32,000 nucleotides of DNA from Clostridiales bacterium (GTDB lineage: Bacteria; Bacillota; Clostridia; Oscillospirales; Oscillospiraceae): positions 6,394 through 38,393 of the forward strand of contig SFFE01000011.1 of assembly GCA_004556965.1 (NCBI GenBank), given 5' to 3'. The notes below the pieces were generated by a model, which worked only from the letters and a program-made list of their open reading frames with translations, ran no database searches and had not been told where the DNA came from. How positions within the stretch are numbered: position 1 is the stretch's first letter; each line of letters opens with the position of its first letter. The position numbers and the translations under genes are program-made. This document shows positions 8,330-29,745 of this stretch, one piece after another.

Positions 8330-8473
8330 GCCTTATCAAGAGTGGCGGAGGGACCGGCCCTGTGAAGCCCGGCAACCTGCATTTGCAAGGTGCCAAATCC
8401 GGCGGTGTAAATCGAAAGATGAGGGAATCACGACTTTCCATGCGCTCCGCCGGGACGGCGGGGCGCATTTTTT
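8330..8473 (+). promoter_or_regulatory. SAM-I (S-box) riboswitch with intrinsic terminator
   Basis: CTTATCAAGAGTGGCGGAGGGACCGGCCCTGTGAAGCCCGGCAACC...AAGGTGCCAAATCC...AAAGATGAGGG matches the S-box core. An 11-bp terminator stem at 8442-8466 is followed by T6. Confidence 0.93.
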
Positions 8474-16932: not shown

Positions 16933-17047
16933 CACGTCAGAAGACGATCGCTCCATTCCGCTTTCGCCACAAGGCGACGGAAGCTGCATATTCGCTCCCG
17001 CCTTCTTCCTTTTCGCGCCGCAACCCATCGTAGCGGTTGCGGCGCGA
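16933..17047. repeat. Copy A of a dispersed structured intergenic element of about 115 nt
   Basis: About 70% identical to the reverse complement of 26118-26230. It shares the 11-mer GCTCCATTCCG with 29638-29648. It has two hairpins whose stems covary between copies. Confidence 0.6.
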
Positions 17048-19855: not shown

Positions 19856-20140
19856 ATGAGTGAAGAATTCGGCAACGATTACCTGACCATCGAGGACGAA
19901 GAGGGCAATACCTTTGAGCTGGAAGTGCTCGGCGGCTTCGACTTTGAAGATCGGTCGTACATGGCGGCGCTGCCCGCCGACATGGAGGAGACAGACCCCG
20001 ATTTCGGCATCATCCTTCTGCGCATCGAAGAGGAGGACGGCGAGGAAATCTTCGCCTCCATCGACGATGATGATGAGCTGGACCGGGTGTACGAATACTA
20101 CATGCAGTTCATTCTGGAAGACGAGGAACCGGAAGCATAA
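19856..20140 (+). CDS. DUF1292 (YrzB-like) small acidic protein
   Basis: 94 aa. MSEEFGNDYLTIEDEEGNTFELEVLG.F.F.DR.Y.AL.P ... is the typical DUF1292 pattern. AGGAGG is upstream. Confidence 0.85.
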   Translation: MSEEFGNDYLTIEDEEGNTFELEVLGGFDFEDRSYMAALPADMEETDPDFGIILLRIEEEDGEEIFASIDDDDELDRVYEYYMQFILEDEEPEA

Positions 20141-20411
20141 GTTCCCGGCTTTTCGCATAGGGATGCAGTAAATCCTGCGGTGTGCGTGGAGCATAGTGGT
20201 TGCTCGGAGCCTATTTAAACCCACATCTCTCATAAGGGATGCCGGAACTCCCGCTGCGGATTGCAGGCCTCCCGGAGCGGCTTTGCGCCGCTTTGGACGT
20301 TGGAAGCAGCGAAACAGCGGGGAGGCGACCCACCTGCATTCTGTGCAGGTTGTAATTGGGCTCACACGGCATCGCGGGACGGCCGGCAGCGGATATCGCT
20401 GCCGGCTTTTT
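20141..20411 (+). ncRNA. Unassigned structured RNA region (a long 3' UTR or an independent ncRNA) ending in a strong terminator
   Basis: No credible ORF. A long closing helix can form between 20174-20191 and 20361-20378. Internal helices include 20248-20256/20315-20324, 20274-20293 and 20332-20350. Confidence 0.35.
20382..20411 (+). terminator. Intrinsic terminator
   Basis: GCCGGCAGCG-GATA-TCGCTGCCGGC followed by TTTTT. Confidence 0.8.
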
Positions 20412-20464
20412 CAGAGCGTTACGGACGTTGTGCAGCTTCGCGGCTTCGGTGCGCAGATTGGTGC

Positions 20465-20493
20465 TTGACGAACGGCGCGGTCTCTGCTATACT
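20465..20493 (+). promoter_or_regulatory. Promoter for the CDF-gene leader
   Basis: TTGACG, 17 nt spacer, TATACT. Confidence 0.65.
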
Positions 20494-20549
20494 CCTCCCA
20501 ATGACAGGTCGAAAGGCCGGGCGGCATGCGCCGCAGCAGAACGAACGAT

Positions 20550-20585
20550 AAGCGTCTGTGGGACAGAACCCACAGACGCTTTTTC
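20550..20585 (+). repeat. Terminator-like hairpin, copy 1 of a 35-nt direct repeat
   Basis: AAGCGTCTGTGGG-ACAGAA-CCCACAGACGCTTTTTC. Confidence 0.85.
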
Positions 20586-20728
20586 TTACGGACGGACCGA
20601 TGTGCCATGTATGCAACTGCATGGGGCGGGTCCGGGAGGGGATTGGGTATCCCCTCCCGGCAAGTTCGATCGGTTGGATTCAGGCCGTGAGCGGCCTGAA
20701 TCCATGCTTCAAAGTGATGTTCACTTTG

Positions 20729-20765
20729 AAGCGTCTGTGGGACAGAACCCACAGGCGCTTTTTTC
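20729..20765 (+). repeat. Terminator-like hairpin, copy 2 of the direct repeat, immediately before the CDF RBS
   Basis: AAGCGTCTGTGGG-ACAGAA-CCCACAGGCGCTTTTTTC. It differs from copy 1 by one substitution. Confidence 0.85.
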
Positions 20766-20787
20766 AACCTGGAAGGGAGTTTATTGG

Positions 20788-21666
20788 ATGCAGGAACAAA
20801 ATGCAAAGTGCGTGACGATGCGCATTTCCGCCGTCGGCATCGTGTGCAACGTGGCGCTGACGCTCTTTAAGCTCATCGCGGGCATTGTGGCGAATTCGGC
20901 CGCCATGGTCGCGGACGCGGTCCATTCGGCGTCCGACATCGTGGGGTCGTTCGTCGTGATGATCGGCGCGGTGATCTCGAACAAGGCGCCGGACACGGAG
21001 CACCCCTACGGTCACGAGAAGCTGGAGTGCATCGCGTCCGTCATTCTGGGCAACATCCTCGTCGCGGTCGGCGCGCTGATCGGCTACAACGGGATTTTGA
21101 AGATCGTCAGCGGTGAGACGCTCACGGCGCCGGGAACGCTCGCGCTCATCGCGGCGGTGGCGTCCATCGTGGTGAAGGAGGCGCTGTACTGGTACACGAT
21201 CCTCGGCGCGAAGAAGATCAACTCCGTCTCGCTCAAGGCGGAGGCGTGGCACCACCGCTCCGACGCGCTCTCGTCCATCGGCAGCTTTGTGGGCATTCTG
21301 GGCGCGCGGCTCGGCGTGCCGGTGCTCGATCCCATCGCGTCGGTGGTCATCTGCCTGTTCATCTTCAAGGTGGCCTACGGCATCTTCCGCGAGAGCATCG
21401 ACCGGCTGATCGACCACGCCTGCTGCGACGAGACCGTCGAACAGATGCGCGAGACGCTCGCCGCCGTGCCCGGCGTGCTGGCCGTGGACGATATCAAGAC
21501 GCGCCTGTTCGGCAGCCGCACGTATGTGGACGTGGAGATCGCCGCCGATGGCGACCTGCCGCTGCGCGAGGCGCACGCCATCGCCGAGGCTGCGCACCAC
21601 ACGCTGGAGCGGGAATTTCCGGAAGTGAAGCACTGCACGGTGCACGTGAACCCGAAGGATGCATGA
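20788..21666 (+). CDS. czcD: Cation diffusion facilitator (CDF) family divalent-metal efflux transporter
   Basis: 292 aa. ADAVHSASD and HHRSDALSS metal-site motifs, six TM helices and a C-terminal cytoplasmic domain. GGAAGGGAG lies 8 nt before ATG 20788. The upstream extension in the track is the leader. Confidence 0.9.
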   Translation: MQEQNAKCVTMRISAVGIVCNVALTLFKLIAGIVANSAAMVADAVHSASDIVGSFVVMIGAVISNKAPDTEHPYGHEKLECIASVILGNILVAVGALIGYNGILKIVSGETLTAPGTLALIAAVASIVVKEALYWYTILGAKKINSVSLKAEAWHHRSDALSSIGSFVGILGARLGVPVLDPIASVVICLFIFKVAYGIFRESIDRLIDHACCDETVEQMRETLAAVPGVLAVDDIKTRLFGSRTYVDVEIAADGDLPLREAHAIAEAAHHTLEREFPEVKHCTVHVNPKDA

Positions 21667-26000: not shown

Positions 26001-26085
26001 TGGTGGGGGAAGATGGATTCGAACCATCGAAGGCATTGCCAGCAGATTTACAGTCTGTCCCCTTTGGCCACTCGGGAATTCCCCC
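26001..26085 (-). tRNA. tRNA-Tyr (anticodon GTA), class II with a long variable arm and encoded CCA
   Basis: GGGGGAATTCCCGAGTGGCCAAAGGGGACAGACTGTAAATCTGCTGGCAATGCCTTCGATGGTTCGAATCCATCTTCCCCCACCA. It is close to canonical bacterial tRNA-Tyr. Confidence 0.95.
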
Positions 26086-26117: not shown

Positions 26118-26230
26118 CTCGCGGCGCGACCCAACGAAGTGGTCGTGACGCGAAAAGGAAGACGGAAGGAGCGGATGTGGAGCTTTCGGCTCCCAGCCGG
26201 AAGCGCAACGCAGCGAGTTTCGTCTGACGT
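26118..26230. repeat. Copy B of the dispersed structured element, inside the 166-nt tRNA-Thr/tRNA-Tyr spacer
   Basis: The + strand aligns to the reverse complement of 16933-17047 (shared GCGAAAAGGAAGA, GGAGCG, TCTGACGTG). Hairpin stems differ by compensatory changes. Confidence 0.6.
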
Positions 26231-26251: not shown

Positions 26252-26327
26252 TGGAGCTGGTAGACGGACTCGAACCCCCGACCTGCTGATTACAAATCAG
26301 CTGCTCTACCAACTGAGCTATACCAGC
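26252..26327 (-). tRNA. tRNA-Thr (anticodon TGT), encoded CCA
   Basis: GCTGGTATAGCTCAGTTGGTAGAGCAGCTGATTTGTAATCAGCAGGTCGGGGGTTCGAGTCCGTCTACCAGCTCCA. My fold gives one G-G mismatch in the T-stem. Confidence 0.88.
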
Positions 26328-27810: not shown

Positions 27811-29634
27811 ATGAAAAAGACATTCCTCAGCCTTCTGTTGATCTTCAGCCTGCTGCTGACGCTTGCGCCAGGCGCGTTTGCCGCGTCGAACCGGGTGGAG
27901 GTGACCTCCGCCGCGGCGATGGCGGAGCAGCTTGCGCAGCCTGCAGCAGTGCCGCAGCGCAGCCGCGCGAGAAGCGCCGCGCCGACGCAGACGGAGCATG
28001 CCGCGCGCGTGCTGCTCTTTGCCGACGCGCTGCCCGACGACTGCGGCGCGCAGCGCGTGCTGCACTACGCGGCGTGGCGCGAGTTCGTGCTCGAATTCGC
28101 CTCGGAGCTTGCGGCGCGCGGTGCATATGAGACGCTCACCGAAACATATGGTATCACCGACTGCTGGCTGGACACGGCGCTCGACGGCGCGGAGGTTTTT
28201 GCGGACACCGACGCCTGCACCTCCTGGGGCGGCGCGGTGATGGGGCTGGACACGCTGAAGTCGCAGGCCGGGCGCTACGTGCCGGAGAGCCGCCGCATCA
28301 CGGTCGCGGTGATCGACACCGGCGCGGATCTGACCATCCCGGCGCTTCAGGCGCGGACGGTTTCGCCGTCCAGCTATGACTTCGTGGACGGCACGTCCGC
28401 CGTCACGGACATCACGACCGGCAGCTCCGCCGGCCACGGCACCAAGGTGGCGAGCCTGCTTGCCGACCTGACGCCGGAGAACGTGGAGCTGATGATTCTG
28501 CGCGTGTTCAGCGAGGAGACGGGCAAGGCGCAGAGCACCACGGTGCTCACGGCACTGCAGTACGCGCTGGAGGCGGGTGCGGACGTCGTCAACCTGAGTC
28601 TCGGCTGGACGAACGCGGACGTCAATCCGGAAAAATACACATTTCTGAATACGGTGCTGGACAAAGCTTACAGCACGGGCGTGCCGGTGATCTGCGCGGC
28701 GGGCAACAACAAGGTCGATGTGCGAACCGTCTACCCCGCGAACTACAGCACGACCATCGCGGTTTCGGCGTTTGACCAGAGCGGAACGTTTGCCGACTCG
28801 TACTCCAACTACGGGCCGGACATCGATTTCTCCGCGCCGGGTACGGCCGTTCAGACCGCCGCGCCCGGCGGCGGCACCGCCACGACAAGCGGCACCTCGC
28901 TCGCCGCGCCGCACATCACGGCGGCCGCGGCGGCCATCCTGCTGGCCGAGCCGGATGCCTCGGCTTCGCAGGTGTATCAGACGCTGCGGACTTATTCCAG
29001 AGATCTCGGCATTACGGGCAAGGACAATCTCTACGGCTGGGGCTGCCCGGTGATGACGGACTATTTCCACAACGTGCTGTGCCCGGCGCTGGCGTTCTCG
29101 GATATGCCGGCGTTTACCGAGTGGTCGCACGCGGGCATTGACTATTGCCTGGAGCACGATCTGCTGCAGGGACTGCCGGGCGCGATTCTGGACCCCGGCG
29201 GCACGACGACGCGCGCGCAGTTTGTCACGATGCTCTGGCGGCTGGCGGGCGAGCCGGAGCCGCACCGTGCGGCGGGCTTCACCGATCTGACGCAGGACTG
29301 GTACCGCGCCGCGGTCGCGTGGGCGGTGGAAACCGGCGTGACGAACGGCATGTCGGAGACGGCGTTCAACCCGGGCGGCGCGGTCACGCGCGAGCAGATG
29401 GCGGCGTTCCTGTACCGCTATGTGCACGTCGCATCGGCGGCGGACGAAACGGTGCTGGAGCAGTTCCCGGATGCGGCGGAGGTCTTCGCCTACGCGCGCC
29501 CGGCGCTCGCGTGGGCGTGCACGGAGGGGCTGATTCAGGGCGTCGGCTCGGATGCGGGCGTTTATCTGCAGCCGAAGGGCAGCGCCACGCGCGCGCAGGT
29601 CGCAACGCTGCTGATGCGCTTTGCTCAGAAATAG
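27811..29634 (+). CDS. SLH-anchored subtilisin-like (S8) serine protease
   Basis: 607 aa. Signal peptide ...LAPGAFA. Catalytic triad motifs VAVIDTGAD, GHGTKVASL and SGTSLAAPHI. Three C-terminal SLH motifs. AAGGAG lies 6 nt before the ATG. Confidence 0.92.
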   Translation: MKKTFLSLLLIFSLLLTLAPGAFAASNRVEVTSAAAMAEQLAQPAAVPQRSRARSAAPTQTEHAARVLLFADALPDDCGAQRVLHYAAWREFVLEFASELAARGAYETLTETYGITDCWLDTALDGAEVFADTDACTSWGGAVMGLDTLKSQAGRYVPESRRITVAVIDTGADLTIPALQARTVSPSSYDFVDGTSAVTDITTGSSAGHGTKVASLLADLTPENVELMILRVFSEETGKAQSTTVLTALQYALEAGADVVNLSLGWTNADVNPEKYTFLNTVLDKAYSTGVPVICAAGNNKVDVRTVYPANYSTTIAVSAFDQSGTFADSYSNYGPDIDFSAPGTAVQTAAPGGGTATTSGTSLAAPHITAAAAAILLAEPDASASQVYQTLRTYSRDLGITGKDNLYGWGCPVMTDYFHNVLCPALAFSDMPAFTEWSHAGIDYCLEHDLLQGLPGAILDPGGTTTRAQFVTMLWRLAGEPEPHRAAGFTDLTQDWYRAAVAWAVETGVTNGMSETAFNPGGAVTREQMAAFLYRYVHVASAADETVLEQFPDAAEVFAYARPALAWACTEGLIQGVGSDAGVYLQPKGSATRAQVATLLMRFAQK

Positions 29635-29745
29635 CTTGCTCCATTCCGGTTCCGGCCAAGGCCGAAACCTCCATATGGTCCAGACCACGCTCTCTTGCCG
29701 CTGCGCGGCAATTCACCTTGTCCGCGCCTTCGATTCTCCTGAACA
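29625..29745. repeat. Copy D (more diverged) of the dispersed element, in the 3' UTR of the S8 protease gene
   Basis: GCTCCATTCCG (29638-29648), hairpin TTCCGGCC-AA-GGCCGAA, then CTCCATAT. A second hairpin GCGCGG/CCGCGC lies at 29703-29727. Boundaries are approximate. Confidence 0.4.

Follow-up and report, generated by a model that had tools for sequence, protein, structure and literature searches.

The question raised by the leader of a gene for a CDF-family metal exporter, located in a 32,000-nucleotide stretch of a Clostridiales bacterium genome (family Oscillospiraceae; assembly GCA_004556965.1, contig SFFE01000011.1, positions 6,394 to 38,393; hereafter the window, whose numbering is used throughout), is why one and the same terminator hairpin should occur there twice and what, if anything, each of the two copies contributes to regulation. 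The original prediction, made from the letters alone, had set two readings side by side: a tandem conditional-termination leader of the attenuator or riboswitch type, and a segmental insertion, possibly resembling a MITE (miniature inverted-repeat transposable element), which had duplicated the terminator. Analysis of the leader, of its counterparts in related genomes and of the sequence between the copies points with good probability to an arrangement which draws on both, namely a NiCo riboswitch leader into whose terminator a repeat element of 144 nt, here called E, has been inserted with duplication of the terminator hairpin.

The duplicated terminator

The centrepiece of the leader is a direct repeat, AAGCGTCTGTGGGACAGAACCCACAG[A/G]CGCTTTTT, which is found at 20550-20584 and again at 20729-20763 with a length of 35 nt, 34 of the 35 positions being identical, and a start-to-start spacing of 179 nt. 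Copy 1 (T1) consists of a perfect 13-bp stem with a 6-nt loop followed by five U, and copy 2 (T2) has one U.G wobble in the stem followed by six U. The sole mismatch, A20576 in T1 against G20755 in T2, recurs in all five other sequences with both copies examined (L092, L093, L095-L097), and as the substitution only converts one pair of copy 2 into the wobble in RNA, both copies still fold, with predicted energies of -24.2 and -24.9 kcal/mol for copies 1 and 2, respectively. A simple terminator scanner calls copy 1 only, because two of the six U of copy 2 are counted into its stem. Identity of the leader base for base over 700 nt in an independent metagenome assembly demonstrates that the arrangement, abbreviated T1-E-T2 in the following, is not an assembly artefact.

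Between the copies lie three perfect hairpins, H1 with 12 bp (20632-20643 paired with 20649-20660), H2 with 13 bp (20675-20687 with 20692-20704) and H3 with 12 bp (20706-20717 with 20721-20732), the last of which extends by four nucleotides, AAGC, into T2. Both the repeat with its single substitution and the three mismatch-free hairpins which it brackets had been recognised in the original prediction, and both are real; the copies, however, end at 20584 and 20763 instead of 20585 and 20765, the second and third hairpin span 20675-20704 and 20706-20732, and the overlap with copy 2 amounts to four and not three nucleotides. A 9-mer, TTACGGACG, which had been noted after copy 1 as well as after a terminator ending at 20411, has lost its significance, as two exact 9-mer pairs were found in 600 nt where approximately 0.7 are expected by chance, and the 9-mer is conserved neither in the sister species nor in other strains.

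The leader is preceded by a sigma-70-type promoter, TTGACG-17-TGcTATACT (20465-20493), which matches in 10 of 12 positions and carries a TG extension. It had been pointed out ahead of the CDF gene before and is indeed conserved in all related leaders, with a constant distance between GCTTGACG...TATACT and the aptamer described below in all orthologous and paralogous ones; transcription is predicted to start near 20500, approximately 7 nt past the -10 box. At the opposite end, the ribosome-binding site GGAAGGGAG (20771-20779), read from the sequence, is situated 6 nt after the U-run of copy 2 and 8 nt before the start codon of the exporter gene, an ATG at 20788 that had previously been assigned to 20789. 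Promoter, aptamer, terminators, E with its core, ribosome-binding site and exporter gene are all encoded on the plus strand.

The aptamer and its expression platform

A compact aptamer of the NiCo (czcD) type is found at 20500-20568 as the only NiCo candidate in the genome from which the window derives (RF02683; 33.2 bits, below the gathering score; E = 1.8e-5 for 801 nt searched, 1.1e-5 per genome). The two Rfam models that had been put forward for inspection thus gave different answers, since NiCo matched and yybP-ykoY did not; in fact, a scan of 20100-20900 at E <= 10 against yybP-ykoY and the other Rfam families returned only NiCo, 6S RNA and chance-level microRNA or small-RNA hairpins. 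The proposal of a metal-sensing riboswitch is hence sustained, although the aptamer is placed upstream of and partly inside copy 1 rather than between the copies, and, as there is one aptamer, the leader is not a tandem riboswitch.

Four helices surround one junction in the Rfam alignments of the window and of the orthologous leader from the closest sequenced species (G016, an Oscillospiraceae metagenome-assembled genome with a 97% identical CDF protein). P1, with about 3 bp (20502-20505 with 20562-20565), is marginal; P2 is GGUC-GAAA-GGCC with 4 bp (20507-20518), P3 is GCGGC-AUGC-GCCGC with 5 bp (20521-20534), and P4, CAGA(A)CG/CGUCUG, comprises 7 bp and one bulge (20536-20543 with 20553-20559). 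The printed Rfam alignment begins at 20463, because the model pushes promoter bases into its long consensus P2; the register given here, with a short P2, is taken from the alignment of the G016 ortholog, which scores 35.6 bits. All junction nucleotides are present, CAGG in J1/2 (20505-20508), GG in J2/3 (20519-20520), A-GCAG in J3/4 (20535-20539) and GGGACAG in J4/1 (20560-20566), and they are identical to those of 12 canonical NiCo members of the same bacterial family, with which the window aptamer shares the blocks CAGG, GGCCGGGC, GCAGCAGA and UCUGUGGGACAG. Relative to these canonical members, P3 displays a compensatory exchange of a C-G for a G-C pair.

The relation between aptamer and terminator is equally shared. 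The 5' arm of T1 (20550-20562) overlaps the 3' strand of P4 plus GGG; it consists of the P4 3' strand plus GGGAC, and in the twelve canonical leaders the same combination forms the 5' arm of the terminator; as in those leaders, a CDF gene is located downstream. Ten more leaders from other species of the genus score between 31.5 and 34.6 bits; promoter and terminator are conserved in all of them, and a CDF gene begins 8-20 nt past the latter. Throughout the bacterial family, 39 of 141 sampled genomes harbour NiCo matches above the gathering score, usually one per genome and with a continuous distribution from 37 to 85 bits, and no match was obtained in the 14 control genomes at E <= 0.001. The comparison with czcD-type leaders with a single hairpin, which had been recommended for this locus, was also informative: the leaders of the sister species have one terminator, and in related leaders without E this terminator is followed by 8 to approximately 55 nt and then by the ribosome-binding site, which in the sister species, GGGAGAGGAGG, is orthologous to GGAAGGGAG of the window.

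On these grounds 20500-20568 is filed as a minimal aptamer of the NiCo class, with T1 as its putative expression platform and a predicted ligand response. The NiCo riboswitch, or czcD motif (RF02683), was reportedly introduced by Furukawa et al. in 2015. Members of the class have been reported to respond to Ni2+ and Co2+, and a response to Fe2+ has also been proposed (PMC9389577). A defining trait of the class is that these ions are bound cooperatively and selectively, with an effect on termination. With the class the window leader has in common the four-helix junction, the conserved blocks, a terminator 5' arm built from the P4 3' strand plus GGGAC, the predicted logic of an ON switch, the position directly before a CDF metal exporter and the occurrence once per genome. 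It differs in its shortened helices, with about 3 bp in P1 and 4 bp closed by a GAAA loop in P2, and in the lack of the conserved 5' ACAGUA tail, for which the directly adjoining promoter leaves no room. A unique trait is the presence of the terminator in two copies with a repeat element between them. The aptamer is a new and minimal member of the NiCo class, combined with two terminators and not arranged in tandem.

In NiCo leaders of other genera of the family (L104-L108), a block ATGGAGTGCCATAGAGCT... follows the terminator and is kept in at least five genera. It reads as a micro open reading frame of approximately 11-19 codons, which starts with MECHRA(I/A) and ends right before the ribosome-binding site of the CDF gene; this block could be a Cys-His leader peptide that lacks annotation or a second regulatory element.

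The repeat element between the terminators

Element E (20585-20728) is composed of a variable 5' segment, a core, H2 and H3, whereby the core (20620-20663) combines GCATGGGGCGGG with hairpin H1 (20632-20660). Its 144 nt fold much better than shuffled sequence (z = -7.3). The part 20607-20705 recurs in the window genome on contig C5, between genes unrelated to the exporter locus, and this second copy shows compensatory changes with respect to the window copy in both hairpins. Apart from the window genome with its two copies, the core occurs one to approximately ten times in six further species of the genus; in the others it was not detected. An exact-pattern scan for ATGGGGCGGG-NNN-GGGAGGGGAT returned about 22 real matches from 185,579 species genomes, about 30 from metagenomes and none from 2.9 million viral contigs; uncultured Oscillospiraceae, Ruminococcaceae or Clostridia of rumen and gut account for nearly all of the matches.

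The conserved part of the family is a near-invariant core of approximately 50 nt. Alignment of 24 distinct copies yields 24 invariant columns, with diverging flanks. Two pairs at the foot of H1 covary (UA 12, CG 10 and AU 1 at the one, UA 16 and CG 8 at the other), a third pair is GC in 17 and GU in 7 copies, and 94% of the H1 cells are paired, as compared with 46-67% when the 3' partner columns are slid. In H2 and H3 the structure but not the sequence is kept across the family, so only the core is conserved. No Rfam family matches E at any of the loci searched, which include the window at E <= 10 and the loci of the core in other genomes.

Several alternative identities of E have been considered. 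Reading of the core from its ATG as coding sequence (MGRV[R/W]EGIGYPLP...) founders on indels of 1 nt in the H1 loop, which shift the frame, and on the covarying stem, which swaps Arg and Trp codons. A tRNA- or tmRNA-like nature of the flanks of those cores that lie beside tRNA genes is not borne out, as ARAGORN calls only the true neighbouring tRNAs; the tRNA look-alike pieces are best read as degenerate duplicates of a terminator plus a tRNA 3' end. Fragments of class C group II introns, which insert after terminators, IS200/IS605 ends and integron attC sites are not known to duplicate a target hairpin, and the defining motifs of the three (5' GUGYG, domain V, a TTAC-type cleavage context, R and L boxes) were not seen in E. 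An autonomous parent could not be assigned either: the lone IS481-like transposase encountered is unrelated to E and belongs to an insertion, coding for an IS481/IS3-like DDE transposase (MPWKERTAMSERQRF...), that splits one core within its H1 loop in another species (G009; L080 / L022).

Elsewhere the surroundings of the core display regularities of their own. At the loci L062-L079 and L152-L184 in metagenome-assembled genomes and metagenomes, the core GCATGGGGCGGG with the GGGAGGGGAT hairpin is followed by AATTTGAGCGAAGCGGATC and a second hairpin. In most genomes the core is convergent to a tRNA gene (Leu, Cys, Gly, Pro or Ala) or lies beside the signal recognition particle (SRP) RNA gene, and these cores adjacent to stable RNA genes share a bidirectional terminator with the neighbouring gene. 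Upstream of them, degenerate copies of the terminator and the tRNA 3' end are often encountered; the duplicated target at tRNA-adjacent loci seems to include the terminator and part of the tRNA 3' end, now degenerate. At such sites E looks like a small RNA gene or like a repeat that strongly favours the ends of stable RNA genes. On the strain level, the gap between T1 and the core is exchanged in a cassette-like manner, as in L095-L097, with 98% identical CDF, an unrelated 35-nt GCACGCAGGGAGACTCATGCGCAATGCGCGGATCC takes the place of CTTACGGACGGACCGATGTGCCATGTATGCAACT (20585-20619 of the window).

Filled and empty sites

The behaviour of E as a dispersed repeat becomes apparent from copies at non-orthologous loci and from two loci that are filled in one species and empty in another. 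Downstream of rplL, the window genome has a single bidirectional terminator, AAAAAGCCACGCAC-GGTAAT-GTGCGTGGCTTT, where G016 has the succession terminator-E-terminator-E-terminator. In the intergenic region that separates two ABC-transporter genes, a single hairpin, AGGGAAGGCCTG...CAGGCCTTCCC, is present in the window genome and in seven other species examined, and G016 shows hairpin-E-hairpin; at both loci E of G016 is of the long form. A scripted search for repeats flanking every core disclosed two more cases, with repeats of 29 nt and 26 nt, the copies of the latter differing by a compensatory pair. The flanking repeats measure 26-36 bp, vary in length from locus to locus and coincide with whole hairpins, and because their sequence changes with the locus, the duplicated hairpins belong to the target and not to E.

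Transferred to the CDF leader, this pattern suggests that T1-E-T2 is the usual footprint of the E family, set here on the terminator of a riboswitch, and that T2 is a target duplication made upon arrival of E rather than a second switch. The leaders of other species with one terminator, including that of a relative in which the cassette is likewise adjacent to the 6S RNA gene (CDF 84% identical), are accordingly interpreted as the matching empty sites. The segmental-insertion reading of the original prediction has consequently held: the 144 nt belong to a repeat dispersed over unrelated loci, and elsewhere, too, local hairpins stand in duplicate on either side of it, with known empty sites. 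The label MITE-like holds only as far as the dispersed repeat is concerned, since a classical MITE would have terminal inverted repeats and a short duplication of fixed length, neither of which is present. It had also been held that a repeated mobile sequence found at unrelated loci would speak against regulation by a riboswitch; the insert is such a sequence, but the riboswitch is not removed thereby.

The subsequent fate of the leader differs between lineages. T1-E-T2 is kept in the other sequences of the window species examined (L092, L093, L095-L097; CDF 93-100% identical). In the G016 leader, on the other hand, T1 is followed by only the first 50 nt of E, of which 19 nt belong to the core (GCATGGGGCGGGTCCGGGAG), and these are fused to the ribosome-binding site; T2 and the remainder of E have therefore been deleted. 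What persists in a relative whose CDF is 89% identical is T1, 40 nt left over from E and, of T2, no more than the 3' arm. T2 has thus been destroyed twice independently and retained once.

A possible relay between aptamer and second terminator

In the model which we propose, the transcript driven by the promoter would open with the minimal NiCo aptamer. In the absence of metal, the P4 3' strand plus GGGAC would pair with 20569-20581, with the consequence that T1 forms and transcription stops; upon binding of Ni2+, Co2+ or possibly Fe2+ the aptamer would keep this strand, T1 would be blocked and the polymerase would go on to the CDF gene, as in an ON switch. The ancestral leader would have consisted of the aptamer, one terminator, a few bases and the ribosome-binding site. 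Later, a copy of E with 144 nt would have been inserted at the foot of T1, whereby the 35-nt hairpin and the U-run were duplicated to give T1-E-T2.

The presence of T2 poses a problem for the expression of the exporter, as transcription must pass T2, because the gene encodes the sole CDF of the NiCo type in the genome and evolves under purifying selection (ratio of nonsynonymous to synonymous substitution rates, dN/dS, of 0.11-0.24 versus relatives). A bypass by a promoter internal to E is not apparent, since the promoter scan of the leader found none. We infer two routes of escape from T2, which has no aptamer of its own. By the first, H3 would compete for the four basal pairs of T2 (AAGC), which probably limits silencing; the ensemble probability of these pairs, located beside the U-run, is 0.08-0.39 in comparison to 0.81-1.0 for those of T1. 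By the second, when T1 has been bypassed by means of the folded aptamer, the free 3' arm of T1 would capture the 5' arm of T2 before the 3' arm of T2 has been made, so that the decision of the aptamer would be relayed to T2, and leaky transcripts with a folded T1 would still be halted there.

This second route has been explored by folding, in which the metal-bound state was approximated by enforcing the aptamer helices. With the polymerase at 20745, the cross-helix between 20569-20581 and 20729-20741 attains a probability of approximately 1.0; with the polymerase at 20765 it is the minimum-energy structure, with a probability of 0.57, the T2 hairpin reaching 0.43. If, on the contrary, T1 has folded, T2 acquires its upper 9 bp with a probability of about 1.0. 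The single difference between the copies matters in this calculation: the 5' arm common to both pairs without a flaw with the 3' arm of T1 and with a U.G wobble with the own 3' arm of T2, and an in silico G20755A exchange, which renders T2 perfect, flips the balance to 0.08 for the cross-helix versus 0.92 for the T2 hairpin. That T2 serves as a second checkpoint, which passes transcripts licensed by the aptamer and stops leaky ones, is advanced as a tentative proposal based on these predictions, rather less probable than its opposite. Doubtful to a slightly greater degree is the combination of such a relay leader, with one aptamer and the A/G difference tuning the balance, with a core of E that acts as a functional RNA or protein-recognition module. 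This core, with a small hairpin, the loop AUGGG and then GGGAGGGGAU/AUCCCCUCCC, may represent a functional RNA or protein-recognition module without prior description which is carried on hairpin-duplicating mobile DNA.

Alternative explanations

Two further origins of the repeat structure have to be confronted with the observations. A leader purpose-built for tandem conditional termination, with two ligand-responsive units in series for a sharper or a two-input response, would account for two complete terminator hairpins in a row ahead of the ribosome-binding site, and tandem riboswitches are known for many classes; no tandem NiCo was, however, among 783 representatives (PMC9481103). Since there is only one aptamer, since 20580-20790 matches neither NiCo nor yybP-ykoY nor any other Rfam family at E <= 10 beyond chance-level hairpins, and since the intervening sequence is a dispersed repeat that also resides at unrelated loci and relatives have a single terminator, such a design is highly improbable. 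Somewhat less remote, though still improbable, is that replication slippage or unequal crossing-over duplicated the terminator segment locally, the 144 nt being native leader. Slippage can produce direct hairpin repeats, one locus of G016 has a hairpin-plus-E unit duplicated in tandem with identical copies, and the 5' 34 nt of the insert vary by strain, one version resembling the leader of a more distant relative. The core of the insert and the hairpins, however, recur with compensatory changes at unrelated loci of the window genome and other genomes, at least four other loci have E between duplicated, locus-specific hairpins, with documented empty sites at two of them, and in canonical leaders terminator and ribosome-binding site are separated by only about 8 nt.

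The nature of E and the role of T2 leave more room for disagreement. Instead of mobile DNA, E might be a structured RNA with a function of its own, either a small RNA or a cis-regulatory domain, which was recruited to the leader and uses T2 as its terminator; the 24 core columns that are invariant across species where the flanks diverge, the G.U wobble of H1 in 7 of 24 copies, which is tolerated on the plus strand only, and the fact that most copies elsewhere end at a terminator beside tRNA, SRP RNA or 6S RNA genes would all agree with this. We nevertheless regard it as unlikely, as no conserved promoter precedes the core, copy numbers within one genus range from 0 to approximately 10 depending on the species, a site that is filled in one sister species, with duplication of the target, can be empty in another, and sister lineages have deleted most of E from the leader and kept the gene. 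The two views are not exclusive, as a mobile element may carry a functional RNA. Not quite as unlikely, and a serious competitor of the relay, is that T2 works as a plain constitutive terminator, the exporter being largely silenced or damped by a neutral or slightly deleterious lesion. Isolated T2 folds as well as T1 (-24.9 kcal/mol, with a U6 run), and the independent loss of T2 by deletion in two related lineages is expected of a burden. Set against this are the intact T1-E-T2 in the other sequences examined of the window species, the exact CDF protein being indexed in 282 blocks of the sequence collection, the status of the gene as the sole NiCo-type CDF under purifying selection, and the weak basal pairs of T2 with a competing cross-helix predicted by folding.

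The insertion of E into a NiCo riboswitch leader is thus favoured over these alternatives, and a number of observations weigh against it or against its extension to a relay. The score of the aptamer falls short of the Rfam gathering score of 37 bits because P1 and P2 are truncated, to only about 3 bp and only 4 bp, respectively, and covariation within the genus is too scant for an independent test of the aptamer helices. Equally, comparison of the ends of E copies revealed no terminal inverted repeats, no transposase or other enzyme for E was found and no transposase adjoins any copy, so the term insertion rests on comparisons of filled with empty sites and not on a mechanism. About 15 of approximately 20 distinct loci of the core are without a flanking repeat. 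The left boundary of E is not sharply defined, because the 34 nt between T1 and the core are swapped for unrelated sequence in some strains. Furthermore, the loop of T1 and T2, ACAGAA, differs from the loop of the sister lineages, which points to gene conversion between T1 and T2, or to a later duplication or a history more complicated than the simple account. As to the relay, the model assigns almost equal energies to the cross-helix and the T2 hairpin, and equilibrium folding gives no firm indication of co-transcriptional kinetics.

Comparison with known elements

Insertion at hairpins has its closest published precedent in IS1272 and TnSha1 of the IS1182 family in staphylococci, which choose their targets by DNA secondary structure instead of sequence, many of them terminator hairpins, and which carry a transposase, cut bluntly in the stem and delete part of the hairpin without target duplication (PMC4923244; PMC5678879). 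E shares with them the preference for hairpin, in particular terminator, targets, but has no gene and leaves a whole hairpin on both sides, and thus is not of the IS1272 type. Long target duplications, on the other hand, accompany the insertion of restriction-modification gene units (Furuta, Abe and Kobayashi 2010; PMC2853133). There, as with E, a unique target of more than 30 bp is duplicated, its length varies and no transposase or integrase is recognisable, whereas the restriction-modification units are kilobase gene cassettes whose targets are not defined by hairpins and which do not constitute a multi-copy repeat family.

In being short, non-coding, structured, intergenic and present in several copies, E resembles the bacterial MITEs and the repeats akin to REP (repetitive extragenic palindromic) sequences, such as Correia, RUP, BOX and bcr1, which have been reviewed and which can alter the expression of neighbouring genes and be transcribed within mRNAs (PMC10969869). 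Classical MITEs have terminal inverted repeats and target duplications of 2-10 bp; both are absent from E, which occurs in few copies (2-10 per genome) and whose duplication encompasses a whole hairpin of 26-36 bp. Full-text literature searches found no published description of hairpin-duplicating elements.

Genomic neighbourhood

The exporter gene itself (20788-21666; 292 aa) is assigned to the CDF family by its Pfam domains Cation_efflux (1.7e-50) and ZT_dimer (1.3e-25). Its upstream neighbour is the 6S RNA gene ssrS (20169-20384, plus strand; RF00013, 54.9 bits versus a gathering score of 46.4), which is kept in 21 of 22 genomes of the genus and ends in a terminator at 20382-20411 on the same strand, a perfect 10-bp inverted repeat with a subsequent T-run.

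The adjacency of the NiCo-CDF cassette to the 6S RNA gene is confined to the window species, its sister G016 and one more distant metagenomic relative. In most species of the genus the cassette occupies a different locus, with a CDF protein 77% identical to that of the window. G016 harbours both cassettes, the copy at the canonical locus and the copy adjacent to 6S, and the window genome (G000) has only the latter, the canonical NiCo-CDF locus appearing to have been lost.

Other structured RNAs of the window include a SAM-I riboswitch at 8330-8425 (RF00162, 84.7 bits) and two tRNAs on the minus strand (26004-26085 and 26255-26327). A further dispersed structured element, with the motif GCTCCATTCCG (16933-17047, 26118-26230 on the minus strand, and 29625-29745), is unrelated to E in sequence.

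Biological implications

For the NiCo class, the findings indicate that standard annotation misses a genus-level set of minimal riboswitches, all of which score 31-36 bits, just below the cut-off, and the window aptamer marks how far P1 and P2 of the class can shrink. Equally, independent comparisons of filled with empty sites support the view that Oscillospiraceae of gut and rumen harbour small elements whose arrival doubles a complete hairpin, a duplication which gains regulatory consequence here since the target of E is the expression platform of a riboswitch. If the relay is true, E would lower the basal but not the induced expression of the exporter in a kind of proofreading, and duplication of a terminator would be a one-step route to tighter riboswitch control, of interest to RNA evolution as well as to synthetic biology. 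The locus, as interpreted here, offers a clean natural example of a mobile repeat that rewires the expression platform of a riboswitch, with the sister lineages representing the states before the insertion and after the loss.

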